Notes under the pieces: model-generated
Told to the model about the DNA's origin: nothing
Database searches by the model: none
What the model saw: only the letters and a program-made list of their open reading frames with translations
Position numbers and translations under genes: made by a program
Source of the DNA: Candidatus Omnitrophota bacterium
Lineage (GTDB): Bacteria; Omnitrophota; Gorgyraeia; DAOVKU01
Reading direction: 5' to 3'
DNA: 37,195 nt
Assembly: GCA_030631665.1 (NCBI GenBank)
Contig: DAOVKU010000002.1
Span: 1-37,195, forward strand
In this document: in pieces, positions 7,988-37,195 of the stretch
How the letters are laid out: every line of letters begins with the position of its first letter
How positions within the stretch are numbered: the stretch's first letter is position 1

Positions 7988-10900
7988 TTGAGAAAAAAAA
8001 TTATTTTTTTAATAGTCTTAATTCTCGGCTGTTTGAATATTACAGGCCTCATTGGAGCCCAAGATCAGGAGACTTATCTCTATGTTCTTAACCCACAGGA
8101 ACCCAACTTAAAAACGTGGCCTACCGGTTGGGGCAATGAACCGGATGAAGTTTCTGCCAGGATTTCTGATGGAAATGTGGTTGTTAGAGGCATTCGGGAA
8201 GAGCAGAGTTTCGGGGCGCTTCATAAAAATATATGTGTTGATTTTGAAAAGTACTCCTATCTTGAAATTGAAGTTAGCCGGGCTGCCAACTGTTGGTATA
8301 TAATTTTTAGTGGTCCTGAATTTGAAAATGGTTTTATAAGAATTCAGAAAGACACCGAAAAAACAGGAAAATTTAAATACAACCTCTGGAATTATCCCCA
8401 GCTCAGGAACAAAATGGAATTTGATATTCAAATTGGAGTGAGCGCTCCCGGGAAAAGCGGACAGAAAGATGTGGAAATGGTTTTCGGAAACCTGCGTTTT
8501 GTTGATACAGGGCGCCGGCGTCCTTTAAAAGGACCGAAATTGATTAGGCGCAATTTACCCCAGCCTATACTGAATGCCAATTACGATTTACCCAAGCCGC
8601 AGATTTCCAGAATTGTTTTTCTATCTTCACACAAGCAGGCTCCAGGGAAAGATTTTTATAAACCTAAGAAAAATATTTTTGAGATTTTCGCAAGACGCGA
8701 ATTGCCTGTTGAAACTCCAATTTCCAGACCGGTTTTTAATGATACAGGCAAAGAAACAATAAGCATTGAAAGCGATTGTTATAAGCTTATTTTCAGCAAG
8801 AAAAATGGCGCATTTCTGGGCATTAAAGATAAAGTAAAAAATGAAATTATATCTGTAGGTTCTGTGGATGGAATTTTATGGCGTCTTAATTTTCATAAAA
8901 GAAAAAGCATAAGCAATAAAGATTTTGATTCTGATTCAAAAGAGAGGCCTTTTAAATATAAATGGAAAAAGTCAAAAAAGCAGCTTTTGTTTTCTTATGA
9001 AGATAAAACCACAGATTTTAAGTTTACAATAACTATTTGCGCCTCAAAGGAAAACTATATAGATTTTAAGACAGAGATTAAAAATACCTACGAGCAGCCC
9101 ATTATTTTAGTTAATTTTCCCAAAGGGCTTACTTTTAAACTTGAGAAATTGAAACGTTTTATTTATCCTTTCCGAGGCGGTCTGGCTTTTAAGCCAGGTT
9201 TTTTTTTAGAAAGGCGTTATATATCTGAGTCACAATATCTTTTTAGCGATTATATAGCAGTAGAATTTGAGAATAGCAATTTATCTTTATATACCATACA
9301 AAATCCCAAGTGCTGGACACAGGCTACCATGAGCGCTGGCTATGATTCATATCAGGGAGGAGCGGGGTTTTATACTTATGCCCAGGCGACCTACATTAAA
9401 AGTAGTTCACGCTGGCGCAGCCCTGTCATTAGGATGCGCATTGGAGAGCCAACGGAAGAAAGCATACAGCATTATATAGAAGATAACGCCCTGAATAAAA
9501 TACCCGATCTTAATAAAAGAATTAGTAAGGATTTATTTTATAAATTATCTAAATCGGTTTTATTAAAATTTGACTTTGTCTGGATAGGTCAAAGTTTTAA
9601 AGAGGTGAAAGAGTTTATTGAAAAATTACCTTCGCCTACCCTTATTCACCCGGTAACTTTCTGGGACAAGGGATTCGATAAAAATTATCCTGATTACCTG
9701 CCGCCCAATGAAGATTTTGGAAGCCAGGAAGATTTAAGAGAGTTGGTTGAAGCAGCACGTGAATTGGGTGATTTGGTAATGCCCTATACCAACCCTACCT
9801 GGTGGAATGAAAGCGTAACTTTAGAAAAACTGGGAAAAGAAAATATTGCTGTTATAAAACTCGATGGCCAGATTCACGGTGAGTGCTACTGGGGAGTAAA
9901 CTGGGGCATAATTACCAGCCCCCATCATCCGCAGGTTATCAAGAGAACCCAGCAGACCGTCCGTGAATTTAAATATGACATACCTTGTGATATCCTTTTT
10001 GAAGACCAGCTGGGCTCCAGACCCTGGCAGTATGATTTAAATCCAAGAGCGAGGGGAGTAAATTTTTATAAACAGGGTTTGATAGATTTTGCTCGAAGGG
10101 ATTCGAAGCAAATCCCTGTTATGTGCGAAGGCGGATTTGACGGGTTGATGCCATACGTGATTGCTTTTTCTGATTTATCGGTTAACAATGCTCTTCCGCC
10201 GGATGAGACTTTTAATAGTTGGTATGGCAAAGGTAACTGGGAAGTATTTCCCTATGCTTTATATGTAGCGCATAATAAAAATGGTTTTTATCAGCACAAT
10301 CTTGCACATGAAGTTTTTACTAATTCAAAAGAACAGCTTACCTGGAATATGGCCTATGGGCATAATTTAAATCAGGGTTATTGGCCGGCTGCCTGGGAGA
10401 AAGAGCAGAAAAAATGGTTCTATATTGATGATGCCTTCCAGAAAGCTGTGGCCTGCCGTTTCTTTGGGAAGAAATTAACTGATTTTCAAAGGATGGGCAA
10501 GGAGATTACTTTTAGCCGTTTTGAAGACATAGGTATAGTTGCGAACCATTCCAAAGTCACGCCATATGAGATAGAAGGTTTTCTCTTACCGCCGGGCGGT
10601 TTTCTCGCCAAATCACAAGATGACAGTTTAGTAGCCGGTATATTCGATGTTTTTAATCACGACCTTTTAGCTGATGAGCACTTTATTATTGTAGAGAAAG
10701 AACCGGACAAAATCATAGTCAAGCAACCCGATGCAAAGAAGACTTTAATCAGTCTTAAGCGGCCGGACGCCTGGGATATGGCTGATAGGATTAATGTAAT
10801 TTGTGGGGGCCAACAGGTGCCGACGGCTGTGTCTGAAGACAAAATAACTTTCCTTTATGATTCTGCAGAAATTAATAGTAAGTATATATTAAATTATGAT

Positions 10901-13900
10901 CCTTTAATAGATGATATAGAGCTGATTATTAAGCCTGAAAAAAATTATGTAAGGCCGCAAGAAAAAGTTAAGGTTTCTGTCATTGCTAAAAACCTAAGCA
11001 TTATGCCTATTAAAGAAGGGAAATTGGCTTTGAGCGCCTGGTTGGTTCATTCCGATGGGCCTGTTCCCGGTATGTGGGGAGGATATTCGCAGGACAAAGC
11101 CGACATTACCCAGGTAAGTGAGATTTTTAAAGCCATAGACATAGATTCTCAGGTTTTGGCTGATTTTAATATTGTTATTCCCGAAAAGGCAGGAGAGGGG
11201 GATATAATTTGGCTTAAAGGTGAAATAATATATACCCAGGATTCCATAAGAAAGATGAAGCAGATTCAGAATAAAGTAAACGTAATATCTCAACCAATAA
11301 AAATTCAAATTAGACCAAAAGAAATTATTATCTATCCTGAAGTTAAAGAGCAACTTGAAATCAAAATAAAAAACAATCAGGCTAAAACCCTGAAGGGAAA
11401 TATTGAATTAGATACCGATTTACCTGCAGGTATTCTGGAAAAAGAAAGCATTTCTTTTTATCTTAAGCCATTGGAAGAAAAAACCATTTTTGTAGGCGTG
11501 CGGGTTCCTGCTTCCGAAGTAGATGAAGATTATCAATTAATTGCTAAGGTTAAATTAGATGGGAGAATGTATTCTTCAAGCACATGTTTGATTAAAGTCA
11601 GCTTGGGGATGCCGGAGATAGGCCTTGGGCCGCAAAATGTTTTGTTTTTAAGCAGGAAGCAGCCCCTTAATGTTACCGTCCAAGCTCATGGGGGGCTGCC
11701 GCTTAAAGGGTGGTTGAATATTGAAGTGCCGGAAGGGTGGCAGATAATGCCTGAGAAGCAGGAAGTAAATCTATTGGCCGGCAAACATAAGAAGTTTGAT
11801 TTTACCATAAAGCCCACTTCGAAAATCGATACAAATATAATTGCAAAAATATCGACAGATGAAACTGAGATAAAACGCCAAGAGGCCTTTAAAGTCATAG
11901 GTGAGAGAGGAGAGGCGGTTTTAATTGAAGCAGATATAAATCAGGATGGTTATACAGATTTTGTGCTTGCCAACAAACTAGTGGAAGTTCACGTAACTGA
12001 GGCCATTGGCGGCAGAATTTTATCCTTCTTTCTTAAAGAAGATGCCCATAATCAGCTTTACAATGCCTATTGGCAACTGCCGAAAACTAAAGAGGCAAAG
12101 GCGTGGATTGAATACGGTGGAATAAATGACTGGTTTCCCAAAGAGTGGCCGGGCGAGGTCTGGGCAAATACCTGGGAATATGAAATAAAACAAAAAGGGC
12201 CGAAGGAAGTATCACTAAAGATGTGGACGCAGACACCTGATAAATTATATCTTGAAAGGACCATGACCTTAAAAGCCGGTTCCCCGGTTTTAAATGTAAA
12301 ATATAAAGTTAAAAATAACTCATCCTCAAAGCAGGAGTTTGCGTGGGCCAATCATCCTGATTTGGCGCCGGGCCCCCGCGATGCTACCGAGAAACACCAG
12401 ATTGTAATTCCCACCAGGGACAAAGGTATGATAATTCAGGATTACAAAAGAAGTATTAGTAAAAACGAATATATCCCCTCTGAGAATTGGATTCTTGCCC
12501 ATGATGGAGCCAGTGATGAATATTTCCTGCAGGAATTTGATAGGAAATTGGTTGATAAAATAGGTGTATGGGAGGGTGTTGGGTTTTACACTATGGAATT
12601 AGTTTTTAAACCAAAGACTTTGAACCCTCAGGAAGAATTTACATTTGATATAAAATATAGTGCGGGAAAAGAGAAATTAGAAAATCTCAAATCAGGCCCG
12701 CTCGCAGTCAAAATGCCTTATCCCCCGGTTGAAGAGAAAAAATATGTTTTTGCTCATTATATGACCTGGTTTGGGACGCCGGAAGTGAGCAATAGTTGGT
12801 ATAATTGGGCGTGGCCCCAAAAAGCACACAAGCGCAATCCTGACAGAACATTGCCTGGAGGCCGCAGGGATATAGCTTCTTTGCATTACCCTTTAATTGG
12901 ACCTTATGATTCAACCGATGAAGATGTTTTGGAATATCATATTTTATTGGCAAAAGCGGCCGGGATAAACGGTTTTGTGGTTAATTGGTATAATTTTGAA
13001 GATAAATTCGGCAAAGTCAAACATATTGACAAAGGTTTCAAAAAACTTCTTGAGGTTTCAGAGAGATTAAATTTTAAAGTCTGTGTTGACATAGATGATA
13101 AATGCATGTTTCCTCCTTATACCTACGGTTCCACCAGAGAGCAAGCAATAAATGAGGCAAAGAAAGCAGTTAGAAGGATATTTAGAGAGTATGGCAGGAG
13201 TGAGGCCTATTTTAGAATTAATGGGCGTCTGGTAATTACAAACTTTGGTTGGGGACCGCCTTTGTTCTCAGGCGAAGGAGCCGTCTCTTTTTCACCGCAG
13301 GAATGGAAAGAGATTATGAATTCCGTAAAAGAATTCCAGCCTTTATTTATTGCTGACCATCAGTGGCATTGGGGAAAAGGCATTGGGGAAACAGGTTTTC
13401 TGGAGGTTGCTGATAGTATTTATCCATGGGTTTCAGGTGGCCCCCAGCCCAGAATAGAATTTTATGAGCAGTCAAAGCAAGCATTAGCCGAAGGTCAAAT
13501 TGAGTTTATTAGCGGAGAAGCATGTCCCGGGTTTGATAGTTATGGCACCTGGGGTTGGGGCGGCGGCCGGACTATTATTCCCAGAGATGAAGGAGAGGTC
13601 TACAAGACAACCTGGGATGAATGCCTGAAGTATGATGTTAAATGGATTCAGATTATAACCTGGAACGATTTTGCAGAAGGGTCAACCATAGAGCCGACCC
13701 TTGAATATGGATATAAATACTTAGAAATAACAGCTGATTATGCGTTTGGATTAAATAACAAAAAACCAAACTATTACGCCCTCAAAATTCCTAAAGAAAT
13801 CTATGATATAAAAAGTCAAATAAAAGAGTTAAGTGAAAATGAAAAAATTAACCTTGACCTTCTCAATTTATATAAGAGAGATTGCAAAGAAGCGGTAGCT

Positions 13901-15454
13901 TTATTTGTAAATGGTAATTATAAAAAGGCAAGTCAAATCGTTAATAACTTGAAACAAAAAGTTAAACGAGAGAAAATAAAAATTCCAGAAATTAAAGAAA
14001 CCGAATTATTGCTTAAACCACAAGAAGCAACTATTTTTGCAGGAGAAACGCAGAATTTTTTTGTTCTTATCAGGAATGAGTCTGATGAATTCCTGAAGGG
14101 CAAACTTAATATTGATAGCGATGGCGATATACCCGCAAATTGGTTAAGTAAAAATACAGTGGATATTGATTTAAGAGCTGGCGAAGAAATAAAAATTCCT
14201 TTTCAGATTAATGTTTCACAAAAAGCAAAAAAGAGAAAAGCGATGATAGAAGCGAAATTAGAAACGGGAGAAAAATTAATACGCTCCCATGTTTCGTTAG
14301 TTAAAATAACACCTTCTTTTTTCCATATAGATATAGGGCCGCTGAACATTTTGCGCCTGAAAAAGAAAGAGAAGATCTTGGTTCAAATTACTACCCAGCA
14401 GAAAAATTCTGATTCAGGAAATATTATATTAAATGTGCCTTCCGGATGGATAGTTAAGCCCCGCAAGGCCTCATATACTATAAAAGGCACTGGTAAAAAG
14501 AAAATTGATTTTTTCATAACCCCCACCAATACAAAAGAAGGCACTATCACAGCTATGGTAACCAGTCGCAATAAAGGAGAATTATCCGCGAGTGAGCCCT
14601 TTAAGGTCATAGAGAAGACAGATGCAGCCCTTGCAAAAGGAGATATTAATGCAGATGGCCGGATAGATTTTGTGCTGGGAAATAGTAAGGTTGAAATTCA
14701 GATTACACCGGCACTGGGAGGGCGAATATTAGCCTTTTATTTACGTCAGACAGGGAATAATCAATTATTTCTTGATTATCCCGGAGTAGAGAAGACCATA
14801 GATAGTGCTTTTGAAGGATGGATTGAGTATGGAGGAATTAACGACACTTTTCCCAGGGGCTGGCCGGGCGAGGTCTGGGCAAATACCTGGGAATATGAAA
14901 TAAAACAAAAAGGGCCGAAGGAAGTATCACTAAAGATGTGGACGCAGACACCTGATAAATTATATCTTGAAAGGACTATGACCTTAAAAGCCGGTTGCCC
15001 GGTTTTAAATGTAAAATATAAAGTTAAAAATAACTCATCCTCAAAGCAGGAGTTTGCGTGGGCCAATCATCCTGATTTGGCGCCTGGCTCATCAAAAAAG
15101 GCGCAATTGGAGGATGAAATTATAATTCCCGCCAGAAGCGGTCTTATTAAGGAGTCGTTTAGAGCCATAATGGGCAAGAGTCATCATTCTCCCAGCGAAG
15201 GCTGGTGTGTGGCTCTTAGCTCAAAAACAGGAGAGTATTTTGCGCAACAATTTGATAGAGATTTAGTGAAAAACATAGGTGTCTGGCAAGGAAAAGATTT
15301 TTTTACAGTTGAATTAATATTTAAAGAAATTTTACTTCAACCGAATGAAGAAGTAAGCTTTAACGTAAATTATCTTGCAGGTAAAGATGATTGGATGCAA
15401 GCTATAAAATATAGCGCCGAAGAAGAAAGCTCGCAGGATTTATTAAAAAGATGA
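7988..15454 (+). CDS. Giant (2488 aa) secreted/lipoprotein multi-domain glycan-active protein
   Basis: TTG start 7 nt after AAGGGG. The signal peptide has a possible lipobox (LILGC) or an SPI site (LIGA|QDQ). Domains by eye:
- A-type novel module, aa 28-173
- uncharacterised beta-domain plus TIM-barrel-like core, aa ~255-930
- three NEW3/CARDB-like Ig modules, aa ~975-1305
- mutarotase-like beta-sandwich, aa ~1306-1565
- GH99-like domain, aa ~1583-1925
- helical linker
- two Ig modules, aa ~2003-2208
- second mutarotase-like domain, aa ~2210-2468. Confidence 0.9.
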   Translation: MRKKIIFLIVLILGCLNITGLIGAQDQETYLYVLNPQEPNLKTWPTGWGNEPDEVSARISDGNVVVRGIREEQSFGALHKNICVDFEKYSYLEIEVSRAANCWYIIFSGPEFENGFIRIQKDTEKTGKFKYNLWNYPQLRNKMEFDIQIGVSAPGKSGQKDVEMVFGNLRFVDTGRRRPLKGPKLIRRNLPQPILNANYDLPKPQISRIVFLSSHKQAPGKDFYKPKKNIFEIFARRELPVETPISRPVFNDTGKETISIESDCYKLIFSKKNGAFLGIKDKVKNEIISVGSVDGILWRLNFHKRKSISNKDFDSDSKERPFKYKWKKSKKQLLFSYEDKTTDFKFTITICASKENYIDFKTEIKNTYEQPIILVNFPKGLTFKLEKLKRFIYPFRGGLAFKPGFFLERRYISESQYLFSDYIAVEFENSNLSLYTIQNPKCWTQATMSAGYDSYQGGAGFYTYAQATYIKSSSRWRSPVIRMRIGEPTEESIQHYIEDNALNKIPDLNKRISKDLFYKLSKSVLLKFDFVWIGQSFKEVKEFIEKLPSPTLIHPVTFWDKGFDKNYPDYLPPNEDFGSQEDLRELVEAARELGDLVMPYTNPTWWNESVTLEKLGKENIAVIKLDGQIHGECYWGVNWGIITSPHHPQVIKRTQQTVREFKYDIPCDILFEDQLGSRPWQYDLNPRARGVNFYKQGLIDFARRDSKQIPVMCEGGFDGLMPYVIAFSDLSVNNALPPDETFNSWYGKGNWEVFPYALYVAHNKNGFYQHNLAHEVFTNSKEQLTWNMAYGHNLNQGYWPAAWEKEQKKWFYIDDAFQKAVACRFFGKKLTDFQRMGKEITFSRFEDIGIVANHSKVTPYEIEGFLLPPGGFLAKSQDDSLVAGIFDVFNHDLLADEHFIIVEKEPDKIIVKQPDAKKTLISLKRPDAWDMADRINVICGGQQVPTAVSEDKITFLYDSAEINSKYILNYDPLIDDIELIIKPEKNYVRPQEKVKVSVIAKNLSIMPIKEGKLALSAWLVHSDGPVPGMWGGYSQDKADITQVSEIFKAIDIDSQVLADFNIVIPEKAGEGDIIWLKGEIIYTQDSIRKMKQIQNKVNVISQPIKIQIRPKEIIIYPEVKEQLEIKIKNNQAKTLKGNIELDTDLPAGILEKESISFYLKPLEEKTIFVGVRVPASEVDEDYQLIAKVKLDGRMYSSSTCLIKVSLGMPEIGLGPQNVLFLSRKQPLNVTVQAHGGLPLKGWLNIEVPEGWQIMPEKQEVNLLAGKHKKFDFTIKPTSKIDTNIIAKISTDETEIKRQEAFKVIGERGEAVLIEADINQDGYTDFVLANKLVEVHVTEAIGGRILSFFLKEDAHNQLYNAYWQLPKTKEAKAWIEYGGINDWFPKEWPGEVWANTWEYEIKQKGPKEVSLKMWTQTPDKLYLERTMTLKAGSPVLNVKYKVKNNSSSKQEFAWANHPDLAPGPRDATEKHQIVIPTRDKGMIIQDYKRSISKNEYIPSENWILAHDGASDEYFLQEFDRKLVDKIGVWEGVGFYTMELVFKPKTLNPQEEFTFDIKYSAGKEKLENLKSGPLAVKMPYPPVEEKKYVFAHYMTWFGTPEVSNSWYNWAWPQKAHKRNPDRTLPGGRRDIASLHYPLIGPYDSTDEDVLEYHILLAKAAGINGFVVNWYNFEDKFGKVKHIDKGFKKLLEVSERLNFKVCVDIDDKCMFPPYTYGSTREQAINEAKKAVRRIFREYGRSEAYFRINGRLVITNFGWGPPLFSGEGAVSFSPQEWKEIMNSVKEFQPLFIADHQWHWGKGIGETGFLEVADSIYPWVSGGPQPRIEFYEQSKQALAEGQIEFISGEACPGFDSYGTWGWGGGRTIIPRDEGEVYKTTWDECLKYDVKWIQIITWNDFAEGSTIEPTLEYGYKYLEITADYAFGLNNKKPNYYALKIPKEIYDIKSQIKELSENEKINLDLLNLYKRDCKEAVALFVNGNYKKASQIVNNLKQKVKREKIKIPEIKETELLLKPQEATIFAGETQNFFVLIRNESDEFLKGKLNIDSDGDIPANWLSKNTVDIDLRAGEEIKIPFQINVSQKAKKRKAMIEAKLETGEKLIRSHVSLVKITPSFFHIDIGPLNILRLKKKEKILVQITTQQKNSDSGNIILNVPSGWIVKPRKASYTIKGTGKKKIDFFITPTNTKEGTITAMVTSRNKGELSASEPFKVIEKTDAALAKGDINADGRIDFVLGNSKVEIQITPALGGRILAFYLRQTGNNQLFLDYPGVEKTIDSAFEGWIEYGGINDTFPRGWPGEVWANTWEYEIKQKGPKEVSLKMWTQTPDKLYLERTMTLKAGCPVLNVKYKVKNNSSSKQEFAWANHPDLAPGSSKKAQLEDEIIIPARSGLIKESFRAIMGKSHHSPSEGWCVALSSKTGEYFAQQFDRDLVKNIGVWQGKDFFTVELIFKEILLQPNEEVSFNVNYLAGKDDWMQAIKYSAEEESSQDLLKR
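8069..8506 (+). other. A-type ~145-aa module (N-terminus of giant protein 1)
   Basis: Colinear similarity to the whole mature parts of the small proteins at 27938..28510 and 29136..29687. Shared motifs: SFG.(L/V)HKN, (K/R)Y(S/P).(L/I).I(D/E)V.S...WY(I/L)I, TGK.KY(N/D)L, F(D/I)LQ(I/V)GV, LRF. Confidence 0.7.
8750..10777 (+). other. Uncharacterised catalytic-core-like region (beta-domain plus TIM-barrel-like), copy in giant protein 1
   Basis: Colinear with 22356..24449 and with 32476..34962. Shared blocks: YPDYLPP...DLRELVEAARELG, ITSPHHPQV, DILFEDQLGSRPWQYD, IPVMCEGGFD, FYQHNL. Confidence 0.65.
12146..12369 (+). repeat. 224-bp intragenic direct repeat, copy 1 (2 mismatches to copy 2)
   Basis: tggccgggcgaggtctgggcaaatacctgggaatatgaaataaaacaaaaagggccgaagg...gatttggcgcc recurs at 14861..15084. 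Only c/t (12263 vs 14978) and c/g (12282 vs 14997) differ. Flanking sequence is far more diverged. Confidence 0.95.
12734..13762 (+). other. GH99-like (endo-alpha-mannosidase-like; GH71-like is the alternative) domain inside giant protein 1
   Basis: HYMTWFG, DIASLHYPLIGPYDSTDEDVLEYHILLAKAAGINGFVVNWY, LNFKVCVDID and IITWNDFAEGSTIEP resemble my memory of the GH99 blocks (YYAWYG; YP.LG.YSS.D..V...H......GI....SWY; SFNEWHEGTQIE). Confidence 0.5.
14861..15084 (+). repeat. 224-bp intragenic direct repeat, copy 2
   Basis: See 12146..12369. The offset is 2715 bp, which is in frame (905 codons). Confidence 0.95.
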
Positions 15455-22355: not shown

Positions 22356-24449
22356 GTGAATAACACCCATTTTATAGAGAATTCTTATCTTAAGTTAGGC
22401 ATTGATAATTATGGCTCAATCACCTGCCTTTATAACAAAAAAACAGGCACCCAGTTTATAAAAAAAGATTCTGGCTCTGGCTGGAAATTGATTGTTTCCT
22501 TAAGGGGCTGGACTGAATATCCTGTCTTTGATTATATGAATCCCGGCGAGATAAGAAAGAATAAAAATAAAATTAGTGTTTCTTTCAAACACCTCACCGG
22601 CTTAGAAGGGGATTTTTTAAGTATATCCATGGATTTATATTTTAGGTTAAGGGGAGAAGATGTAATTTTAGAGGCCGGAATAAAAAATAATTCTCCAGAA
22701 GTTGTTCGGGAGGTATGGTTCCCTTTAATTTCCGGATTAACTAAAATATCTTCTTCAGAAAAAGATTCTTTTATTACCATTCCCCTGTGGATTGGTTCCA
22801 AATTTAGGAACCCAGTCAAGACCCTTCCTGAAAATTGGGTGCCCAAAGAGGGTAGTTTTTCCTGGAAGTTTCCGCTTTTGTATCCGGGCATTGCTTCCAT
22901 GAGCTGGATTGATTTCTATAATGAAAAAGAAGGGCTTTATTTTGCTTCTTACGATAAAACTTTCCAGACTACCGGCCTTGGTGCGCGCAGAAGAAAAGAG
23001 AAAGGTGATTTTCAGCTGGGTATAATAAAATATCCTTTTATTGAGCCTGGAGAGACATGGAAGTCAAAAGAATATATAATTTCAGCCCATAGAGGCGATT
23101 GGCACGCCGGTGCTAAAAAATACAGAAGATTTACAGATACCTGGATGGAGAAGATTAAAAGGCCCGACTGGATAAAACAGGCGCCCGGCCTATGTGATTT
23201 ATTTATGAAGCACCAGAATAAAAGGATTTATTTTAATTATGATAGATTGCCTTTAATTCAAAAGGAAAACTTAAAGAAAGGCCTGAATCTGCCTCTGTAT
23301 ATTTTTTCCTGGTATGGCAACGGGCATGACTCCGGCTATCCTGAATATGCGGCAGATAAGGATATGGGAGGAGAGGGGAAATTAAAAGAGGCCATAAGGG
23401 ATGTCAAAGAAAAAAAAGGCAAAGCGATACTTTATACTCAGGGACGTTTAATAGATTTTGCTACAAATTATTACAAGAACAAAGGTCATAAAGTTTGCAT
23501 TAAGAATGAAGACGGCATTTTTTATATTGATGAATACTCCTGGCCCATACAGGGCAGCATTTCGCCGCATAAGGTTTTTGCTATCGCCTGCCCCTCTACT
23601 AAAGAGTGGTCAAGACAGTTGAATAAACAGGTAGACTTGGTTATGTCTCTGGGGGCAGATGGTCTTCTTTTTGACCAGATAGGAGGGGATCATCCTTATC
23701 TTTGTTTTGACAAAACCCACCCCCACAAGAAACCGGCTATGGCCTTCGCCGGCAAAATCAAATTACTTAAAAACTTGCGTAAAAGAACCAAGAGAAAAAA
23801 TAAAAATTTCGCTATTATGGTAGAACTTGTCTGTGATTGTTTCCTGCAGTATGTTGATATGGTTCATGCCCACTGTGAAAATTTTAGGCCGGAAGGCAAT
23901 TTACTTCCCATGCCGGAACTTTACCGTTATACCTTTCCGGAACATATTCTCTCAAGCAGAGATGCTTATGAAGAAGAGGCCATTAATCAATCTTTTGTTT
24001 TGGGCTTGCGCCAGGAATACTGGCGCATGTTTGAGGCCTTTGAACACGTGGATGCCCGTTTTGAGAACGACCCCGAGCAGCTGCGGGTAAAAAATTATGT
24101 GACTAAAATGCTCAAAAGCAAGGCGCATCTAGAAAAAATATTTAAGTTAAAAAAGAAATGCCCTGAGCTTCTTATAGAAGGTATTTTTAAAGATGAAGAG
24201 GGCATAAGAGTTTCAGATAAAAAAGTAGAAGCAAAATTGTTTACTTCTAAACACGAAGAACATAAAGCAGTTGTTCTCTGGAATAAGGCGCTCATGAGAA
24301 AAAATATTAAGTTAGAAGTTAGCAGGAAAGACCATAGATATAAAGTATTGTATCCGGATAAAGAGATAAATAGAAAGACTATAAATCTAAAGCAATCTCT
24401 GAGTTTAAGCTTAGGCGCCGGAGAAATTTGTGCTGTGATAATAAGATGA
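22356..24449 (+). CDS. Cytoplasmic uncharacterised putative glycoside hydrolase/phosphorylase (TIM-barrel-like; possibly the family annotated DUF6259)
   Basis: 697 aa, no signal peptide, GTG start 8 nt after AAGGA. Colinear with the core regions of both giant proteins: YPEYAADKDMGGEGKLKEAIRDVKEKKG, IACPSTKEW, ADGLLFDQIGG, FAIMVELVCD. Confidence 0.8.
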   Translation: MNNTHFIENSYLKLGIDNYGSITCLYNKKTGTQFIKKDSGSGWKLIVSLRGWTEYPVFDYMNPGEIRKNKNKISVSFKHLTGLEGDFLSISMDLYFRLRGEDVILEAGIKNNSPEVVREVWFPLISGLTKISSSEKDSFITIPLWIGSKFRNPVKTLPENWVPKEGSFSWKFPLLYPGIASMSWIDFYNEKEGLYFASYDKTFQTTGLGARRRKEKGDFQLGIIKYPFIEPGETWKSKEYIISAHRGDWHAGAKKYRRFTDTWMEKIKRPDWIKQAPGLCDLFMKHQNKRIYFNYDRLPLIQKENLKKGLNLPLYIFSWYGNGHDSGYPEYAADKDMGGEGKLKEAIRDVKEKKGKAILYTQGRLIDFATNYYKNKGHKVCIKNEDGIFYIDEYSWPIQGSISPHKVFAIACPSTKEWSRQLNKQVDLVMSLGADGLLFDQIGGDHPYLCFDKTHPHKKPAMAFAGKIKLLKNLRKRTKRKNKNFAIMVELVCDCFLQYVDMVHAHCENFRPEGNLLPMPELYRYTFPEHILSSRDAYEEEAINQSFVLGLRQEYWRMFEAFEHVDARFENDPEQLRVKNYVTKMLKSKAHLEKIFKLKKKCPELLIEGIFKDEEGIRVSDKKVEAKLFTSKHEEHKAVVLWNKALMRKNIKLEVSRKDHRYKVLYPDKEINRKTINLKQSLSLSLGAGEICAVIIR

Positions 24450-28510: not shown

Positions 28511-28540
28511 ACTATGTATAAAAATAGAGGGCAAAAGAGT

Positions 28541-29080: not shown

Positions 29081-29135
29081 GAGGATAAGCAATACACAAA
29101 GATTTAACTAACTAATTTTAGAAAAAGGAGTTGAG

Positions 29136-29687: not shown

Positions 29688-29730
29688 AGAATTAAACAAA
29701 AAAAGCCTTTAAAAAGACAAAAATTTCTTC

Positions 29731-29773
29731 TTGACAGGTTATTTTTTATCTGTTAATATTGAAGCGCTTCAAT
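29731..29773 (+). promoter_or_regulatory. Promoter plus perfect 16-bp palindromic operator upstream of the PEP-CTERM gene
   Basis: TTGACA (29731..29736), 17 nt, TAATAT (29754..29759), overlapping the palindrome ATTGAAGCGCTTCAAT (29758..29773). The ORF track's TTG 'start' at 29731 is this -35 box. Confidence 0.6.
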
Positions 29774-29823
29774 TAATAATCAAATCGTTTTTCTTTAAAA
29801 AGATAAAGATAAAGAAGAATAAG

Positions 29824-30396: not shown

Positions 30397-30614
30397 ATAT
30401 GAGAGCTTGCAATCTTAGGTTCATTTTTGCCGCGTTAATTTTCTCAAAATGTTAAACTTAAATAATTAGTAGAGAAAATTCTTATACCATATTGCAATTT
30501 CTTTCAATTTTTGATATATTTCCTGCTCCGGCCGGGAGAAAGTATAAACTTCAACATAAATTACCTTGTAGGCAAAGATGATTGGGAAAGGGCAGTAAAA
30601 GACAAAATTTTTTC

Positions 30615-30656
30615 TTGAAAGGGTTTATTTTCAAGTTATAATTGAAGCGATTTAAT
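30615..30656 (+). promoter_or_regulatory. Promoter plus degenerate copy of the same operator upstream of giant gene 2
   Basis: TTGAAA (30615..30620), 16 nt, TATAAT (30637..30642), overlapping ATTGAAGCGATTTAAT (30641..30656). The left half-site is identical to that at 29758 and the right half matches 5/7. The upstream A/T tract AAAATTTTTTCTTGA also parallels 29718..29735. Confidence 0.5.
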
Positions 30657-30702
30657 TTTTAGTTATTCATAAATAAAAATTAGTTGAGAAGAAGGAGTAA
30701 AA

Positions 30703-33700
30703 ATGAAAAAATTCCTATTACTTGGTTTAGTGGCTGGTTTTTTTGCGTTGAATCCTTTTTTGGCTCAAGCGACCGTTTGGACAGAGGATTTTAGCGATGT
30801 AAGTGATTGGTCAGCTGCCGAAGGAACCACTTTTACCAGTGATGGTTCCGCAGCTAGATTAGAGGATCTCTCTGATGGTACGGGTTGTACTACCTGGATA
30901 GGTACCAGAGTTTCCTACCAACAAGGGGATTTTGTATCTTTAACTGTAAGCGATATCGATTCTCTTCAAGGCGCCCAGTGGTATTATATAATCCATCAAT
31001 ATAATAATGCTGGGAGTTACATAGGCCAATTAGACGTTTTTCCTCCTTCGACTGATATAGGTATTTTTAATAGTTACTTAACTGCTCACCATCCCGATCT
31101 TGCTAGTTACGACCCGCAACTAAGGATTTATACTCCTGGTGGCAGTACAGGTTACGCTGAGTTTGACGATTTATCTGTTGTTCCGGCCGATGATGTAACT
31201 TTTATCACCTTTGATAATTTTGATTCTCACAAGTGGATTCCTCTTCCAGAACTTGATCCACCAAAACAACCCACCATTTCTTATTCTCCGGCTTATGCCA
31301 GTCAGGGGACGAATGCCTTGAAAGTCGAGTGTCCTGTTTGGGACCCTTTGATAGAAAATAACTTTACCGGCCTTCAAATTTCTCCCCAAATTCCGTCCAA
31401 TCCAGGTGCATCTGTATCTGAAGACTGGAGTAATATTGAAACCTTTAAAATGGAAGCTTGGTTAGAAGAGATTCCGGATGATCCCCCTGGAATGGTTTTG
31501 AGGCTCCGTAATAGTAATGGTGAGCAATGGGACAAATGGCACGTGGTTCAGATTTATAATCGCTGGAACGAACTAAGTTGGAATGTTACCGATTGTCCTT
31601 CACATATTATTAGTGATGTCGCCTACGTAGCTTTAGTGCCGGATTGGTACAACGACCAGACTTTACCTCATTTGACTTTACATTTAGATGATATGAGATT
31701 GTCTAAAAGCGATGGCTCTCAGGAATCATGGGACACTTGTGATGGACCTTCGCATGCCTGGTATGCTGATAGTAATGGCAGTCGAGCCGGATTGACTCAT
31801 AATGATGCCTATTTAACAGAAGCAGGTTCTCTATTCTTGGGATGGTTATATGGGGGCATAGATAATGTGGCTGTGGCTAATTCTGGAAGTATTGACCCGG
31901 CCCTCGATATCTACGGATGTAAGTATGTCAAGGCTAACATTAAATGTTCAAATAAAAATGTTCCTATCAGTCTATCTTTCTACGATGGAAGCGTGGAGAT
32001 TGAAACCACTACCCAGACAGTCAGCGTAGCCAATAATTGGAGCTTACTTGTCTGGGCAATTCCTTTTGATTCTACGTTTAATTATAAAAATATTCAAAGA
32101 GTAAAAGTGATAACTAATGATATTGATGTCTATACCGATGCCTACATCTATATGGATAATTTAAAATTTGGAGCAAACATTACTACACCTACCCAATTTA
32201 CTATTGTATCTGGTGATGAAAAGAATAAATTATACTGGCGCAACCCTGCCAACCCTGACTTGGTTGGCATAGAAGTTATAAGAAATACGGCCCACTATCC
32301 GACCTCAAGAACAGATGGCACCTCAATTTATAATAGCACTCTTGAAGAAAGAGAGGATTACCGTTCTTTTGAAGATGCATTATTAACTAATGGCACCACT
32401 TACTACTATAGTATTTTTGCCTATGATGCCTCTGGGGATAATGACCCAGCCCAAAATTTTGGGCGACCAAATTTCCCCATTATTATCAGTAATGATTATT
32501 ATGAAATAAGCCTATCGGCTCACAATGGCTCTATGGAATATATTAAAGACAAAACCACTCAAGAGAATATTATTATCAATTCTCCTAATAGGGCCTTGTG
32601 GGAAATTCTTTTTGATGAAAACGAAAGGCATGATGCTTCAGAGTTTTCATCTATTTCAAGCGAAAAAAACTTTTCTTATAGTACAGGAGGAAATACGCAT
32701 ACCCTGGTTTATGATTATAACGTGGATGGAGAACAATTTAGTATTGTAATAACCATAGAACAAACCGATAGCAATTACTTTGATGTGATGACTCAAATTA
32801 ATAATCACTTTGGCAAAGGTATCCAGGAGATAAAGACTAAATTTTATTTAGACCGTAGCCAGGTGAAACGCTTTTTTTATCCATACAAAGAAGGCATTTG
32901 TTACCTAAAACAGTTCTTTACGGATAAGATGAAGGCCTGGGTTAATCCTAAAGATAATAAGGCTATCTATCAGCATTTGTTTGCTGATTTTGCTGCCTTA
33001 GAGACTGATTCGGGAAGCAATATCACCTTTTATATGATACAGAGTTCTACTGAGAGATTTCAACCGACCGCCCTTATAATCGATTACGATGAATTATTTG
33101 GAGACGTCAATTATTACTATCAGCATAAGTTTTTCACCTATATTTATAATGATACTTCCTGGACAAGCCCGACTTACCGGATTAGAGTGTCTTCTCCTTT
33201 GGATACTACCGTTTATGACTATGCTGCTGATAACGCATTAGATTCGCCTGTTACTCTGGAAAGCAAAGTCAGAGATACTTATGCTTATGACCCTGACTTA
33301 TACGATAAATTAAAAAACAGTATCTTTGTTAAGACAGGGTTCTACGATATGATTGAACAGCTCAGCATTGACTCACACGATATCTTTAACTATGTTGCTA
33401 ATACCTTAATGCCGATGTTACCCTCTCCATGCATTTTGACCGTAACTCATTACTGGCTACCTTTGGATGATAGCCCTGATGCCGTAATTGAATTTACAGA
33501 AAATAACCAGCCGGATGCTCTGCCTCCGAGCCCATACTATTCTTCCGGCAATACTTACGAAAGCGCAGAACAGGAATTTCAAAATATATTTGATAAAGCT
33601 CATGAAAGAAACATTTTGGTATCACCATTTTCTAATTCTACTGTATGGAACGACTTGGACGAATATACAGATGCACAAAGAGAAGGTGTCGCCAAGCGTT

Positions 33701-36700
33701 ATTTAGACGGAGGATTTACCGTCACTGACTTTGGCCAAAAAGGAGGATATATCTCTAGTCCATGGCACCCGGATGTTAAAGTAGTTAATAGAAGGACGAT
33801 TGAAGGTATCGGCTTTTTTAACGACCCCAGCGACCCAATGTATGACCCTGGCAGTCCATACAATGAAGCAGGTTATAAAGGCTATAGAGAATATGGCGCA
33901 GATGTCTTATTTGAAGACCAGATGGCAGCCAGACCTTGGGATTATGACACAAACGATTCCGTACCTTACCTTGAGGACTATCCAACTTTGAAAGATTACA
34001 CTGCCTACGGCGAAGGAATGTTAAGGATGGCTGAGGAAGACTGCCAGCGGATGCCGATATTTACCGAAGGTTTGTGGGACAGAATGATTGACTTTATGTA
34101 TGGCTTTTGTGGTTCTATTATAGAGAAGCACTGGCACTTAGACAAAAATCACCAGAGAGACAGTAAGTATTCGCACTGGGGCCCTGAGTTTGAAAATTGG
34201 GAAATGTATCCTATGGCAAACCTATTAACACATCATAAAGTTGCTTTTTACCAACATAACCTTACTTACTGGACCTTATTCTGCAATAAAGAACCTGAAG
34301 ACAGCAATAGAAACCTGCTTACCTATGACGCTGTTTATGGATATAATTTAGGATTTGTTGTGGTAGAGCCCGTTACTGAGACCAATTTAGGCTGGTTAAG
34401 AGTTGGCGACGCTTATCAGAAGGCGCTTTTATCCAAGACCTTTGGCAAAAAGATGATTGATTTTCACAACATAAACGGAAACAACAAACACGTCCAGAGC
34501 CAGTTTGAGAGCGATTCAGGCACAATTACCATCATAGGTAACTTCTATGAGGATGTTACTTATGATATGGGAGATTATACACTTTCGCCACTTGGATTTA
34601 TAGCTACCAGTGAAAATGGAGATTTAGTTGCCGGTGTATTTTCTAATGAATTTAATAACGCCCTTCTTTCAAGCGGCGAACATTATCTAATTGTAGAAAA
34701 ATCAGCCGATGGAAACATAATAACTGTCAAGCAACCCAGAGGAACCGATACAGCTTTAATTATTGATAGGCCCAGCGATTGGATAAATGACAATGAGATT
34801 TATTTGCTCAAAGTTCTGTCTAATGGCACAGAGTTGTTAGGTGACTTTACTAATAAAACAGCAACTACACTTGAATTTGATTTTAATGTCACTGACCCTG
34901 TTAGCGGATATAGCGTCAATGGATATAAAATTTATGGCAATCAGTCTTCTTCTATAAAGCCACCTTTCTTTATATCAGTGCCACAAGCAAGAAGTGCAGG
35001 TCCGACTTCGGAGAAGATAACCTGGATGACAGATGAAGCGGCGAATAGCCTTGTAGAATACGGCACAACAATCAGTTATGGTTCAACTGTAAGCGACGCC
35101 AACTATGTAACTGACCACCAAATAATTATAACAGGTTTAACAGAAAGTCAAACTTATCATTATAGAGTTCAGTCTACAGATGTTGATGGGCATACTGCCA
35201 CTAGTGGTGATTATACTTTTGTAGTTGGTGGCACAGCCTGGCAAGAACATTTTGATCCGGCAAAATCTACCTGGGTAGAACAAGGAATTACACTAACGGA
35301 TGAACCAGGTACAACAGCCACCTTGACCGAAAGCGACCCTGTCAATAGTTATGGAAAAGCCGAATCTGAACTGATTACCTTAGATGTTGATACCTATTCT
35401 AAATTATTGGTCACCTCAACCGCTGTAGATACTGACTGTAACTATACCATCCAAATTCAAGAAGAGGGTGGTGCCTATGCTTCCAAGAACGTCATCGAAG
35501 GTATCACTCAACCCGGCACTCAAGTTGTTAATATTGCTACTGTGATGGGATGGAGCGGGGTAATGTCATTTAAGATAGGTGTTTGGGTTGATGGAGAAGG
35601 AAAAAGTGTAGTTCTGGATCTAATTGAAATAAAAGAAGCTGACAGTAATTCTCCTGTCATTACCTCAGGCCCTGGTGTCAGCCCCGGAGATACACAAGCC
35701 ACTATTATTTGGACAACGGATGAAGAAGCCGATAGTGTGGTTGAGTATGGCTTAGATGCTAATTATGGCTCTAGTGTTTCAGATACTGCCATGGTTATAG
35801 ATCACTCTCTGCAATTAACCGGCTTAACAGCCAATATTTTGTATCATTATAGAGTAAAATCCACAGATCCTTTTGGTAATACTGTCACCAGTAGTGATTA
35901 CACTTTTACTACTTTAGCTGGTGGTACAGCCTGGCAAGAACATTTTGATCCAGCAAAATCTACCTGGGCAGAACAAGGGATTACACTAACGGATGAACCA
36001 GGTACAACAGCCACCTTGACCGAAAGCGACCCGGTCAATAGCTATGGAAAATTAGAATCAGAAGTTATTACCTTAAGCTTATCTGCCTACCCTCAATTAA
36101 TTATTACTTCCACAGCTATAGATGAGAACTGTAGTTATCATATAGGCATCCAAGAAGAAGGCGGGGCTTACGCCTATAAGAATGTTCTTGAGGGCATTGC
36201 TCAACCCGGCACCAACGTAGTTGATATTGCTTCTGAAATGGGTTGGAGCGGCACCAAATCCTTTAAGATAATTATCTGGATAAATGGTGAGAGTAAATCC
36301 GCTGTCTTTGATCTTATCAGTATCGGAACTACCACAACAGCTTGGATAGAACATTTTGATCCTATCAAGCCCAGCTGGAACGAAGCAGGAGCCACCTGGA
36401 ATGATATCACCGGCACTACCGCCATACTTACAGAGAATGATCCCGTACTTAGTTATGGCAAGGTTGAGTCCGAAGTTATTACTTTAGATTTATCTACTTA
36501 TCCTCAATTAGTAGTTTCCACAACCTCAATAGATACTAACTGTAGTTATAATATAGGAATCCAGGAAGAAGGCGGGGCTTATGTTTATAAAAATGTATTG
36601 GAAGGCGTTTCTCAGCCTGGCAGTAATGTAGTAGACCTTGCAGCTGAAATGGGTTGGAGCGGACTAAAATCATTTAAGATAGTTGTTTGGGTAAACGGTG

Positions 36701-37195
36701 AAAGCAAGTCTATCACCTTTGATTTTATTAGTGTAGGAACTGAGACTGCAGCTTGGTGTGAAGATTTTAATCCTATAAAACCAAGTTGGAACGAGGTTAG
36801 TGCTACTTGGAACGATATAGTAGGCACCACAGCCATTTTAACCGAAAGCGACCCCGCAGTTAGCTATGGCAAAGTCGAATCAGAAATTATCACCTTAGAT
36901 TTATCTGTATATCCTCAATTAATAGTGACTTCGACAGCTATAGATGAGAACTGTAGTTATCATATAGGCATCCAGGAAGAGGGTGGTGCTTATGCTTATA
37001 AGAATGTGATGGAGGACATTACCAAACTTGGCACCAACGTAGTTGATATTGCAACTGAAATGGGTTGGAGCGGCACCAAATCCTTTAAGATAGTTATCTG
37101 GGTTAATGGAGAAAGTAAATCTGTTACCTTTGACCTTATTAGTGTAGGAACTGAGACTGCAGCTTGGTGTGAAGATTTTAATCCTATAAAACCAA
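30703..37195 (+). CDS. Second giant secreted multi-domain glycan-active protein, 3'-truncated by the window edge (at least 2164 codons); absent from the ORF track
   Basis: ATG 30703 lies 5 nt after GAAGGAG. I translated frame 1 codon by codon to 37194 and found no stop. Signal peptide MKKFLLLGLVAGFFALNPFLAQA|TVW. Domains by eye:
- B-type module
- two jelly-roll CBM-like modules
- FN3
- the same uncharacterised catalytic-like core as giant 1
- two PAP-N-type FN3 domains (W.TDE..S.VEYG...YHYRV.S.D)
- at least 5 copies of a 137-aa module. Confidence 0.9.
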   Translation, partial: MKKFLLLGLVAGFFALNPFLAQATVWTEDFSDVSDWSAAEGTTFTSDGSAARLEDLSDGTGCTTWIGTRVSYQQGDFVSLTVSDIDSLQGAQWYYIIHQYNNAGSYIGQLDVFPPSTDIGIFNSYLTAHHPDLASYDPQLRIYTPGGSTGYAEFDDLSVVPADDVTFITFDNFDSHKWIPLPELDPPKQPTISYSPAYASQGTNALKVECPVWDPLIENNFTGLQISPQIPSNPGASVSEDWSNIETFKMEAWLEEIPDDPPGMVLRLRNSNGEQWDKWHVVQIYNRWNELSWNVTDCPSHIISDVAYVALVPDWYNDQTLPHLTLHLDDMRLSKSDGSQESWDTCDGPSHAWYADSNGSRAGLTHNDAYLTEAGSLFLGWLYGGIDNVAVANSGSIDPALDIYGCKYVKANIKCSNKNVPISLSFYDGSVEIETTTQTVSVANNWSLLVWAIPFDSTFNYKNIQRVKVITNDIDVYTDAYIYMDNLKFGANITTPTQFTIVSGDEKNKLYWRNPANPDLVGIEVIRNTAHYPTSRTDGTSIYNSTLEEREDYRSFEDALLTNGTTYYYSIFAYDASGDNDPAQNFGRPNFPIIISNDYYEISLSAHNGSMEYIKDKTTQENIIINSPNRALWEILFDENERHDASEFSSISSEKNFSYSTGGNTHTLVYDYNVDGEQFSIVITIEQTDSNYFDVMTQINNHFGKGIQEIKTKFYLDRSQVKRFFYPYKEGICYLKQFFTDKMKAWVNPKDNKAIYQHLFADFAALETDSGSNITFYMIQSSTERFQPTALIIDYDELFGDVNYYYQHKFFTYIYNDTSWTSPTYRIRVSSPLDTTVYDYAADNALDSPVTLESKVRDTYAYDPDLYDKLKNSIFVKTGFYDMIEQLSIDSHDIFNYVANTLMPMLPSPCILTVTHYWLPLDDSPDAVIEFTENNQPDALPPSPYYSSGNTYESAEQEFQNIFDKAHERNILVSPFSNSTVWNDLDEYTDAQREGVAKRYLDGGFTVTDFGQKGGYISSPWHPDVKVVNRRTIEGIGFFNDPSDPMYDPGSPYNEAGYKGYREYGADVLFEDQMAARPWDYDTNDSVPYLEDYPTLKDYTAYGEGMLRMAEEDCQRMPIFTEGLWDRMIDFMYGFCGSIIEKHWHLDKNHQRDSKYSHWGPEFENWEMYPMANLLTHHKVAFYQHNLTYWTLFCNKEPEDSNRNLLTYDAVYGYNLGFVVVEPVTETNLGWLRVGDAYQKALLSKTFGKKMIDFHNINGNNKHVQSQFESDSGTITIIGNFYEDVTYDMGDYTLSPLGFIATSENGDLVAGVFSNEFNNALLSSGEHYLIVEKSADGNIITVKQPRGTDTALIIDRPSDWINDNEIYLLKVLSNGTELLGDFTNKTATTLEFDFNVTDPVSGYSVNGYKIYGNQSSSIKPPFFISVPQARSAGPTSEKITWMTDEAANSLVEYGTTISYGSTVSDANYVTDHQIIITGLTESQTYHYRVQSTDVDGHTATSGDYTFVVGGTAWQEHFDPAKSTWVEQGITLTDEPGTTATLTESDPVNSYGKAESELITLDVDTYSKLLVTSTAVDTDCNYTIQIQEEGGAYASKNVIEGITQPGTQVVNIATVMGWSGVMSFKIGVWVDGEGKSVVLDLIEIKEADSNSPVITSGPGVSPGDTQATIIWTTDEEADSVVEYGLDANYGSSVSDTAMVIDHSLQLTGLTANILYHYRVKSTDPFGNTVTSSDYTFTTLAGGTAWQEHFDPAKSTWAEQGITLTDEPGTTATLTESDPVNSYGKLESEVITLSLSAYPQLIITSTAIDENCSYHIGIQEEGGAYAYKNVLEGIAQPGTNVVDIASEMGWSGTKSFKIIIWINGESKSAVFDLISIGTTTTAWIEHFDPIKPSWNEAGATWNDITGTTAILTENDPVLSYGKVESEVITLDLSTYPQLVVSTTSIDTNCSYNIGIQEEGGAYVYKNVLEGVSQPGSNVVDLAAEMGWSGLKSFKIVVWVNGESKSITFDFISVGTETAAWCEDFNPIKPSWNEVSATWNDIVGTTAILTESDPAVSYGKVESEIITLDLSVYPQLIVTSTAIDENCSYHIGIQEEGGAYAYKNVMEDITKLGTNVVDIATEMGWSGTKSFKIVIWVNGESKSVTFDLISVGTETAAWCEDFNPIKP
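32476..34962 (+). other. Uncharacterised catalytic-core-like region, copy in giant protein 2
   Basis: LPSPCILTVTHYW, ISSPWHPDV, DVLFEDQMAARPWDYD, MPIFTEGLWD, FYQHNL and HYLIVEKSADGNIITVKQP match giant-1 blocks in the same order. Confidence 0.65.
35233..37195 (+). repeat. In-frame tandem coding array of the 137-aa B-type module
   Basis: Module starts (GC(C/T) TGG = AW) fall at 35236, 35929, 36340, 36751 and 37162. The first interval is 693 bp (module plus FN3). The others are exactly 411 bp. The array runs off the window end. Confidence 0.9.

Follow-up and report, generated by a model that had tools for sequence, protein, structure and literature searches.

Glycoside hydrolases (GH) of families GH129 and GH101 use an Asp nucleophile and a Glu acid/base residue in comparable positions. 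Their catalytic domains resemble each other and the barrels of GH13 (PMC8106489). The giant proteins described from the phylum Omnitrophota, of the Archaeovorin and dockerin types, measure 10-147 kaa (thousand amino acids) and possess many transmembrane segments and SecA, C39 or dockerin/TSP3 domains (bioRxiv 10.1101/2023.11.21.568195; 10.64898/2026.06.07.730766), and large Omnitrophota genes are typically found near sugar-import genes and genes resembling a type II secretion system (T2SS; West-Roberts et al. 2023; Nielsen & Lui 2026). Here we have investigated a gene, hereafter the target, at the 3' end of a 37,195-nucleotide stretch of DNA from a Candidatus Omnitrophota bacterium (contig DAOVKU010000002.1, positions 1 to 37,195; the window). 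An earlier note, made from the letters alone, had described it as an open frame running off the window end. This observation is borne out, as is most of the domain map in the note. We find that 30703-37195 holds at most the 5' two-thirds of a single genuine gene of an Omnitrophota-like bacterium, interrupted by an assembly break at its own tandem repeats. Its product shares a predicted core fold with GH129 and GH101, and its surroundings are those of the Omnitrophota giants.

The open frame and its truncation

Translation of 30703-37194 from ATG 30703 revealed no stop in any of the 2164 codons of frame 1, as had been claimed, while the local base composition would predict about 141 (probability of no stop ∼1e-63) and 96-248 occur in each of the remaining five frames. 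Going upstream, the frame first meets a stop at TGA 30685, and no start codon lies between it and ATG 30703. A Shine-Dalgarno-like and a promoter-like sequence were found at the positions given for the proposed ribosome-binding site and promoter. A stop-bounded list of open reading frames (ORFs) over the same region contains just 8 ORFs of 60-85 aa, and the gene is therefore truly absent from such a track, in agreement with the earlier note. An in-frame stop or a frameshift had been named as the findings that would contradict the open frame; neither was encountered, the frame being open to 37194 and free of indels to 35286 in comparison with a second assembly.

This assembly, L001, is 99.96% identical to the window over 19136-35286 without indels, and a third, L002, is 100% identical over 28430-32300. 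Both near-identical sequences come from SAMN18200499 / SRR13892601, a sample from the Site-F cold seep in the South China Sea (PMC9357000), and the genomes closest to the window are Candidatus Omnitrophota metagenome-assembled genomes. The final 60 nt of the window exactly match a copy located 411 nt upstream, an intragenic repeat, and L001 terminates at 35286, where a 53-nt exact repeat starts (35287-35339 = 35980-36032). As the window and L001 both end at exact repeats, the truncations are assembly breaks and not natural gene ends.

Four complete proteins with the module order of the target indicate how much of the gene may be missing: P0087 (JGI, 4789 aa), NCC50959.1 from Spartobacteria (4147 aa), MFH0953089.1 from Verrucomicrobiota (3273 aa) and MBN1268916.1 from Kiritimatiellae (3268 aa). 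Thus, the full length of the target is probably 3-5 kaa, which supports the suggestion of the earlier note that the true length could be much larger and argues against a giant of more than 10 kaa. No close relatives of residues 165-592 were detected when JGI metagenome contigs were scanned, and for this reason no full-length orthologue was recovered.

Domain architecture of the product

The order common to the complete homologues is an N-terminal (N) module, modules A and B', an FN3-like module, the core at about residues 580-1380, arrays of B modules and FN3 domains, and a tail of 170-570 aa. The same colinear module order is observed in the target, which is cut before any comparable tail. 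The identity between these homologues, from PVC (Planctomycetes-Verrucomicrobia-Chlamydiae) bacteria, and the target is only about 25% in the core, and they carry their B modules mostly as B-B-FN3 units, in contrast to the order FN3-B-FN3-B-B-B-B (cut) that follows the core of the target. In the case of the Kiritimatiellae homologue, the neighbouring genes likewise encode a type-beta small secreted protein (hidden Markov model (HMM) E 1e-21) and LacI. A Pfam search of the complete homologues P0105 and P0087 found nothing.

Residues 3-23 are the sole hydrophobic segment of the visible protein (the only Kyte-Doolittle peak >1.6) and are followed by A-Q-A; residues 1-23 read as a Sec signal peptide with an A-x-A cleavage site, consistent with the cleavable signal peptide proposed earlier. 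The adjoining N module aligns with a stand-alone 186-aa ORF in L003, a related Omnitrophota locus (L003:8522-9082; 50-51% identity, E 9e-53), and with s2, a small secreted protein encoded upstream of the target (E 7e-6). It had been described as a B-type module. For the target itself this link is weak (hhalign E 2e-3), but in three of the four complete homologues (P0087, P0099 and P0105) the B-module HMM does detect the module at the equivalent position.

The two modules reported, as jelly-roll CBM-like, to follow the N module are real conserved units, A and B', found at the same positions and in the same order in homologues. They have no credible match in Pfam, NCBIfam or PDB, and profile comparison detected no relation between them or with the B modules. 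Similarly, no credible match in these three databases was obtained for the N module, for the B module or for residues 491-592, where an FN3 domain had been claimed. The latter claim is sustained at the level of a motif, the match to an FN3 profile covering 21 columns with the F-G strand motif only (hhalign E 9.5e-5), and by the conservation of this module in homologues.

FN3 domains are clearer beyond the core. Pur_ac_phosph_N (PF16656) matches the whole target with 54.2 bits against a cut-off of 30 (E 2.2e-14, 2 stretches), and it is via this model that FN3 membership reaches the Pfam gathering threshold; the two FN3 domains are 56% identical to each other. The B module comprises 137 aa (411 nt), its copies being 62-76% identical in protein and 63-84% in DNA, and Tandem Repeats Finder (TRF) detected the array with a period of 411, 2.9 copies and 76% matches. 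The reported alternation of FN3 domains and modules, followed by further modules, therefore corresponds to FN3-B-FN3-B and then more B modules.

The core and its relatives

Alignment of the core with residues 258-929 of giant 1, a paralogue encoded in the first half of the window, yields 28% identity over 780 columns (E 7e-78), as expected from the claim that the two proteins have this core in common. A word-index search for homologues detected one relative only, and an exhaustive profile search was needed to reveal the core family, which comprises 831 cluster representatives, 441 of them at E <= 1e-30. Many members are stand-alone proteins of about 780 aa, some are far larger, and signal-peptide-like N-termini are present in most. 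The nearest relative of the target within this family is only 33% identical. Pfam DUF6259 (PF19773) is matched by 35 of the 36 aligned members, the sole exception being the target. The gathering threshold of this model (28.7 bits) is exceeded by giant 1 (34.2 bits) and by ORF 22356 (109.8 bits, E 1.8e-31), but not by the target; the family member P0001 also matches it.

ORF 22356 had likewise been named as a carrier of the core. Direct BLASTP between the target and this protein gave nothing significant, whereas the core-family profile aligns with it over 435 colinear columns (hhalign E 1.4e-5, probability 80%), with the FDQ motif and a Glu...Asp pair kept. The relationship is thus remote yet real, both proteins being linked to DUF6259. 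Judged by this colinear, profile-level similarity, the core is a divergent relative of the DUF6259 superfamily. Its earlier description as uncharacterised is correct in that no member has been characterised, but it overlooked a fold like that of the GH129/GH101 alpha-glycosidases.

This fold emerged from structure prediction. AlphaFold (AF2) with a 3-sequence alignment gave an unusable model (predicted local distance difference test, pLDDT, 41), whereas the 36-sequence alignment gave a model of the core with a pLDDT of 86.7 and a predicted template modelling score (pTM) of 0.90. The top Foldseek matches to this model in the PDB are the GH129 enzymes ZgGH129 (5OPQ; E 7.9e-27) and NagBb (5WZN; template modelling (TM) score 0.73 on the target), followed by GH101, a GH36-like galactosaminidase, GH36 and GH31. 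The sequence profile of the core family also detects 5opq (E 6.8e-6) and 5wzn (E 2.7e-3) in the PDB, over stretches of 45-110 residues, while a single-sequence PDB search with the core returned noise only and no GH129 entry. The beta-sandwich, (beta/alpha)8 barrel, beta-sandwich layout of the GH129/GH101 fold class is present in the predicted model, but family-level sequence similarity over the catalytic module, by which CAZy defines GH129, is not. In its predicted structure the core thus resembles the retaining alpha-glycosidases of GH129 and GH101, and the target can be placed as a divergent member of a family that exists already but is unstudied, with a glycosidase fold that can be recognised in the model.

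The target keeps each of four residues that hardly vary within the family (D1067, D1072, E1122 and D1126). In the AF2 model a strand at core residues 477-479 directly precedes Asp1072, and Glu1122 is the final residue of the strand at core residues 527-530. Their conservation and their location at predicted strand ends suggest Asp1072 as the candidate nucleophile and Glu1122 as the candidate acid/base.

With giant 1 and P0001 as reference, the target core has a 24-residue insertion, FNDPSDPMYDPGSPYNEAGYKGYR (33823-33894, core residues 449-472), just before the candidate nucleophile strand, and a second insertion of 9 residues (∼33976-34002, core residues ∼500-508) shortly past this strand. Core residues 462-468 are below pLDDT 50 in the AF2 model and the adjoining 10-residue blocks average 48-54.

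Table 1. Features of the target gene, its product and the surrounding window. Residue numbers are those of the protein concerned.
Feature	Position	Strand	Basis or remark
Partial coding sequence of the target, >=2164 codons, 3' end missing	30703..37195	+	translation, base composition, assembly comparison
Promoter-like TTGAAA-16 nt-TATAAT	30615..30642	+	11/12 consensus positions; consensus match alone
Operator-like palindrome TTGAAGCGATTTAA abutting the target -10 hexamer	30642..30655	+	candidate LacI-family site
Shine-Dalgarno-like GAAGGAG	30691..30697	+	5 nt upstream of ATG
Predicted Sec-type signal peptide, residues 1-23 (MKK..., hydrophobic core, AQA/TVW)	30703..30771	+	Kyte-Doolittle
N-terminal module, residues 24-165, motif VWTEDFSDVSDW	30772..31197	+	homologous to stand-alone small secreted proteins
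Module A, residues 165-335, conserved	31195..31707	+	colinear same-position matches in P0091, P0101, P0105, P0141
Module B', residues 335-490, conserved	31705..32172	+	colinear matches in P0151, P0141, P0099, P0087, P0105, P0101
FN3-like module, residues 491-592	32173..32478	+	F-G strand motif; directly before core in P0101, P0105, P0087, P0141
Catalytic-type core, residues 593-1361: N-terminal beta-sandwich, (beta/alpha)8 barrel, C-terminal beta-sandwich	32479..34785	+	homology, AF2, Foldseek
Asp1072, motif LFEDQ, candidate nucleophile	33916..33918	+	Asp in 149/154 family sequences; predicted barrel-strand end
Glu1122 and Asp1126, motif FTEGLWD, candidate acid/base and helper	34066..34080	+	Glu 147/153, Asp 146/153
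FN3 domain, residues ∼1424-1508	34972..35226	+	weak fn3/PhoD_N matches at 1429-1501; Pur_ac_phosph_N stretch
B module 1, residues 1508-1644	35224..35634	+	repeat and HMM comparison
FN3 domain, residues 1653-1737	35659..35913	+	best Pur_ac_phosph_N stretch at 1663-1737
B modules 2-4, residues 1738-1875, 1876-2012, 2013-2149	35914..37149	+	TRF period 411
B module 5 start, first 15 residues	37150..37195	+	cut by window end inside 60-nt exact repeat
Two PilB/GspE-type ATPases, PilT-like ATPase, PilC/GspF-like membrane protein	1997-7860	+	directly upstream of giant 1
Giant 1, 2488 aa, TTG start	7988..15454	+	paralogue: core at 258-929, GH99/GH71/WbsX-like domain 1585-1906
Solute-binding protein and two permeases (ABC importer)	18903-22352	+	domain matches
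DUF6259 protein, 697 aa (ORF 22356)	22356..24449	+	remote core paralogue; N-terminus MNNTHFIENSYLKLGIDNYG
LacI-family regulator	24428-25483	+	domain match
s1, s2, s3, small secreted proteins	27938-28510, 28514-29080, 29136-29687	+	stand-alone relatives of the giants' modules

The B-module family and the small secreted proteins

B modules also build secreted proteins of 490, 635 and 916 aa, the named examples being from Phycisphaerae. The Phycisphaerae-type proteins (L042 10001-11905, L044 10001-12751) consist of a signal peptide, 3-6 B modules and a conserved C-terminal tail of about 45 aa (DYNxDCxVxFxDL...NWL), which looks dockerin-like in its D-x-N-x-D...DL motif. Their genes are located between a gene for a protein of about 265 aa, of unknown type, and one for a prepilin-type (N_methyl) protein, with an AraC-type regulator, GH99/GH71-like genes, a sodium:solute symporter and GH130 nearby. 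As giant 1 contains a GH99/GH71-like domain and is followed by GH130, the partnership of B repeats, GH99-like domains and GH130 recurs in the window.

The small secreted proteins s1-s3, of about 185 aa each and without a Pfam match, fall into two subfamilies together with the N-termini of the large proteins, s1 and s3 with that of giant 1 and s2 with that of the target. The s1/s3 type is related to the B family (hhalign probability 96.5%, E 7.6e-10), the type of s2 and the target N module only weakly (E 2e-3). Homologues of s1-s3 are also encoded ahead of the giant 1 orthologue in L003, and one comes after the Kiritimatiellae homologue in L045.

The four ORFs of about 190 aa upstream of the target were considered as pseudopilins of the PilB, PilT and PilC homologues. 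This reading was rejected, as they have ordinary Sec signal peptides and no prepilin leaders, and three of the four are homologous to modules of the giants. The fourth, s4 (29731-30396), ends in a hydrophobic stretch and a basic tail resembling a PEP-CTERM or VPDSG-CTERM sorting signal, with weak matches (E 0.035-0.11).

Genomic context and candidate regulation

All genes of the window are on the + strand. The first half encodes GH94, homologues of PilB, PilT, PilB and PilC, giant 1, GH130 and GH65, and the second half the solute-binding protein, two permeases, the DUF6259 protein, LacI, a second GH94, s1-s4 and the target. Thus, the target is located beside T2SS- or type IV pilus (T4P)-like genes and carbohydrate-import genes, the setting described for giant proteins. 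The DUF6259 protein is probably cytoplasmic, its N-terminus, MNNTHFIENSYLKLGIDNYG, being read as lacking a signal peptide. In the first GH94 ORF (64-1872) only the final ∼60 positions of the N-terminal supersandwich domain are represented, and this gene is therefore probably partial too, extending beyond the 5' end of the window. The GH94, GH65 and GH130 proteins are below all NCBIfam equivalog cut-offs, GH130 being nearest to beta-1,2-mannobiose phosphorylase and GH65 generic.

L003 is syntenic with the half of the window that contains giant 1, amino-acid identities being 88% for GH130, 82% for GH65, 64% for giant 1, 76% for the solute-binding protein and 76-79% for the permeases. The giant 1 orthologue in L003 has only 1578 aa and its tail aligns with residues 2011-2488 of giant 1, so that it seems to lack the GH99/GH71-like segment.

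A 14-bp palindrome with a central CG, TTGAAGCGCTTCAA, was found in the window, scanned with up to 2 mismatches, in 3 copies (7946-7959, 29759-29772 and 30642-30655) against 0.17 expected, all in promoter DNA, those of giant 1, s4 (the perfect copy) and the target, respectively. In L003, 4 intergenic copies were detected against 0.08 expected (5431-5444, 7730-7743, 8421-8434 and 8473-8486), one before the LacI gene, one before the s2 homologue and two before the stand-alone homologue of the N module of the target. The palindrome is confined to the promoter regions of genes for secreted proteins plus, in L003, of the LacI gene. It thus has the features of a LacI regulon, a central-CG palindrome present in several promoters of the locus and kept in a relative, and it looks like a candidate operator of the LacI-family regulator of the window.

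Discussion

The analysis shows the gene itself with its module order and homologies, a predicted fold, and the conservation of both residues and architecture. On this basis we consider it reasonably likely that the target is a Sec-exported, multi-module, extracellular glycan-degrading enzyme with a core of the GH129/GH101 fold, whose products are imported and processed by the proteins of the locus under LacI control. The protein would be secreted via Sec and its core would cleave or trim an extracellular or cell-surface glycan with Asp1072 as the nucleophile and Glu1122 as the acid/base, and the N module, A, B', the FN3 spacers and the C-terminal B array would hold the enzyme on the polymer or surface. 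The freed oligosaccharides would enter by the ABC importer of the locus and would be processed inside the cell by the DUF6259 paralogue, GH65, GH94 and GH130, with expression controlled by the LacI-family repressor through the common palindromic operator. Within this scheme we infer the catalytic roles, the hydrolase activity, the binding role of the modules, the coupling to the pathway and the regulation.

Several observations weigh against this proposal. No Pfam model matches the core region at E <= 1, whether the whole target or the core alone is searched, and structural alignment yields only 9-13% identity to GH129 and GH101. The candidate catalytic residues were assigned from conservation and predicted strand ends. 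A literature search for DUF6259 and DUF5696 found no papers, and no member of the core family is characterised. The B module has no relative in Pfam or PDB, a binding role being pure inference. The neighbours provide no readable substrate specificity, as GH130 and GH65 are below the equivalog cut-offs, and Actinomycetota members of the core family have housekeeping neighbours only, with no carbohydrate context. Finally, the tail at 35287-37195 is backed by this assembly alone.

The last of these points would become serious if the tail were a mis-assembled collapse or chimera, rendering the number and order of B modules artefactual, and the break of L001 exactly at the first exact repeat, together with the exact repeats of 53 and 60 nt, could be taken in this way. 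The copies have, however, diverged to an extent normally resolved by short reads, the frame is open across every junction and the FN3-B and B-B pattern agrees with that of the complete homologues, making such an artefact very unlikely. Another possibility, that the visible 2164 residues are the N-terminal tip of an Omnitrophota giant of at least 10,000 aa with its main functions downstream, draws on the nearest genomes belonging to a phylum rich in proteins of this size, which are often truncated at repeats and located near T2SS-like and sugar-import genes, and on the window ending inside a repeat array. We give it little credence, as the complete colinear proteins have 3268-4789 aa, giant 1 and its L003 orthologue are shorter still, and the visible part has neither the transmembrane segments nor the SecA-type domain described for such giants.

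Activity of the core is a separate question. More than 60% of the visible protein consists of non-catalytic modules, large Omnitrophota proteins have been proposed as mediators of adhesion, and the target core, alone among the 36 aligned relatives in missing Pfam DUF6259, has lineage-specific insertions; all of this would suit a surface adhesin or scaffold in which a glycosidase-like core serves as a non-catalytic, glycan-binding pseudo-enzyme and the other modules attach to a host or prey cell. The retention of all four near-invariant acidic residues and a locus geared to sugar import and phosphorolysis make this quite improbable. Alternatively, an active core may follow another mechanism, for example that of a transglycosylase or of an enzyme remodelling glycan in the envelope polymer or exopolysaccharide of the cell itself. 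Transglycosidases occur among retaining TIM-barrel folds, GH13 and GH31 being examples, the Actinomycetota genes, among their housekeeping neighbours and outside catabolic loci, adjoin an ECF-type sigma factor, and the PEP-CTERM-like tail of s4 is a feature linked to exopolysaccharide-producing bacteria. The neighbours are nevertheless catabolic in the window, in L003 and in the Kiritimatiellae locus (importers, phosphorylases, LacI), which counts against remodelling, and no glycosyltransferase or polysaccharide-export genes were found among the genes of the window; we regard this alternative as unlikely.

It is possible, if doubtful, that the core represents a new glycoside hydrolase family of more than 800 clusters and the B module with s1-s3 a new family for glycan binding or attachment, and that these form a LacI-linked glycan-harvesting system across PVC bacteria (Omnitrophota, Kiritimatiellae, Verrucomicrobiota and Phycisphaerae), exported with the help of the adjacent T2SS/T4P-like machinery and stripping surface glycan from a host or prey in an Omnitrophota episymbiont or predator.

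The finding is mainly a point of annotation and does not amount to a novel type of biology: partial genes at contig ends go unseen in stop-bounded ORF lists, and it is there that intragenic repeats break assemblies. The gene itself is of moderate value. It ties the widespread and unstudied DUF6259 and its divergent relatives to a GH129/GH101-like fold with candidate catalytic residues, reveals a 137-aa repeat module, so far without annotation, that is present within large enzymes and also in the form of small secreted proteins, and adds a candidate regulon, a LacI gene with a 14-bp palindrome, in Omnitrophota, for which experimental biochemistry is nearly absent. Most interesting are the uncharacterised catalytic family, the unannotated B module, and the fact that both are paired, in a manner conserved across PVC bacteria, with small secreted proteins and a candidate LacI operator. 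The study of a single member could establish a new CAZy family and clarify what host-dependent Omnitrophota digest.

Among known systems, the predicted core is closest to GH129, represented by the alpha-N-acetylgalactosaminidase NagBb (5WZN) and the 3,6-anhydro-D-galactosidase ZgGH129 (5OPQ), which have the same three-domain layout. GH129 provides the best Foldseek matches (E 8e-27; TM 0.65-0.73 on the target) and, over short stretches, the only significant profile-to-PDB sequence matches of the core family, whose near-invariant acidic residues follow consecutive predicted barrel strands. However, identity is 11-13%, the target core is about 100-150 residues longer with its own insertions, and the target exceeds 2 kaa and contains module arrays which GH129 enzymes lack. 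The endo-alpha-N-acetylgalactosaminidases of GH101 (EngBF, 2ZXQ; SpGH101) are, like the target, large multi-domain secreted enzymes, with a GH13-like barrel resembling that of GH129 (PMC8106489); the core matches them in Foldseek with E ∼1e-16, but with a lower TM of 0.24-0.38 and no detectable sequence similarity, and the accessory domains differ. The PF19773 (DUF6259) model spans about 300 residues of the barrel and has no function attached, in comparison with a conserved unit of about 680-770 residues here. With the Omnitrophota giants the target shares its richness in repeats and its truncation in assembly, and the locus shares with theirs the T2SS/T4P-type ATPases, a PilC-like protein, a solute-binding protein, ABC permeases and glycoside hydrolases. 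It differs from them in that its visible 2164 residues contain, as judged by Pfam, no SecA DEAD, C39 or dockerin/TSP3 domain and, by hydrophobicity, no transmembrane segment beyond the signal peptide.

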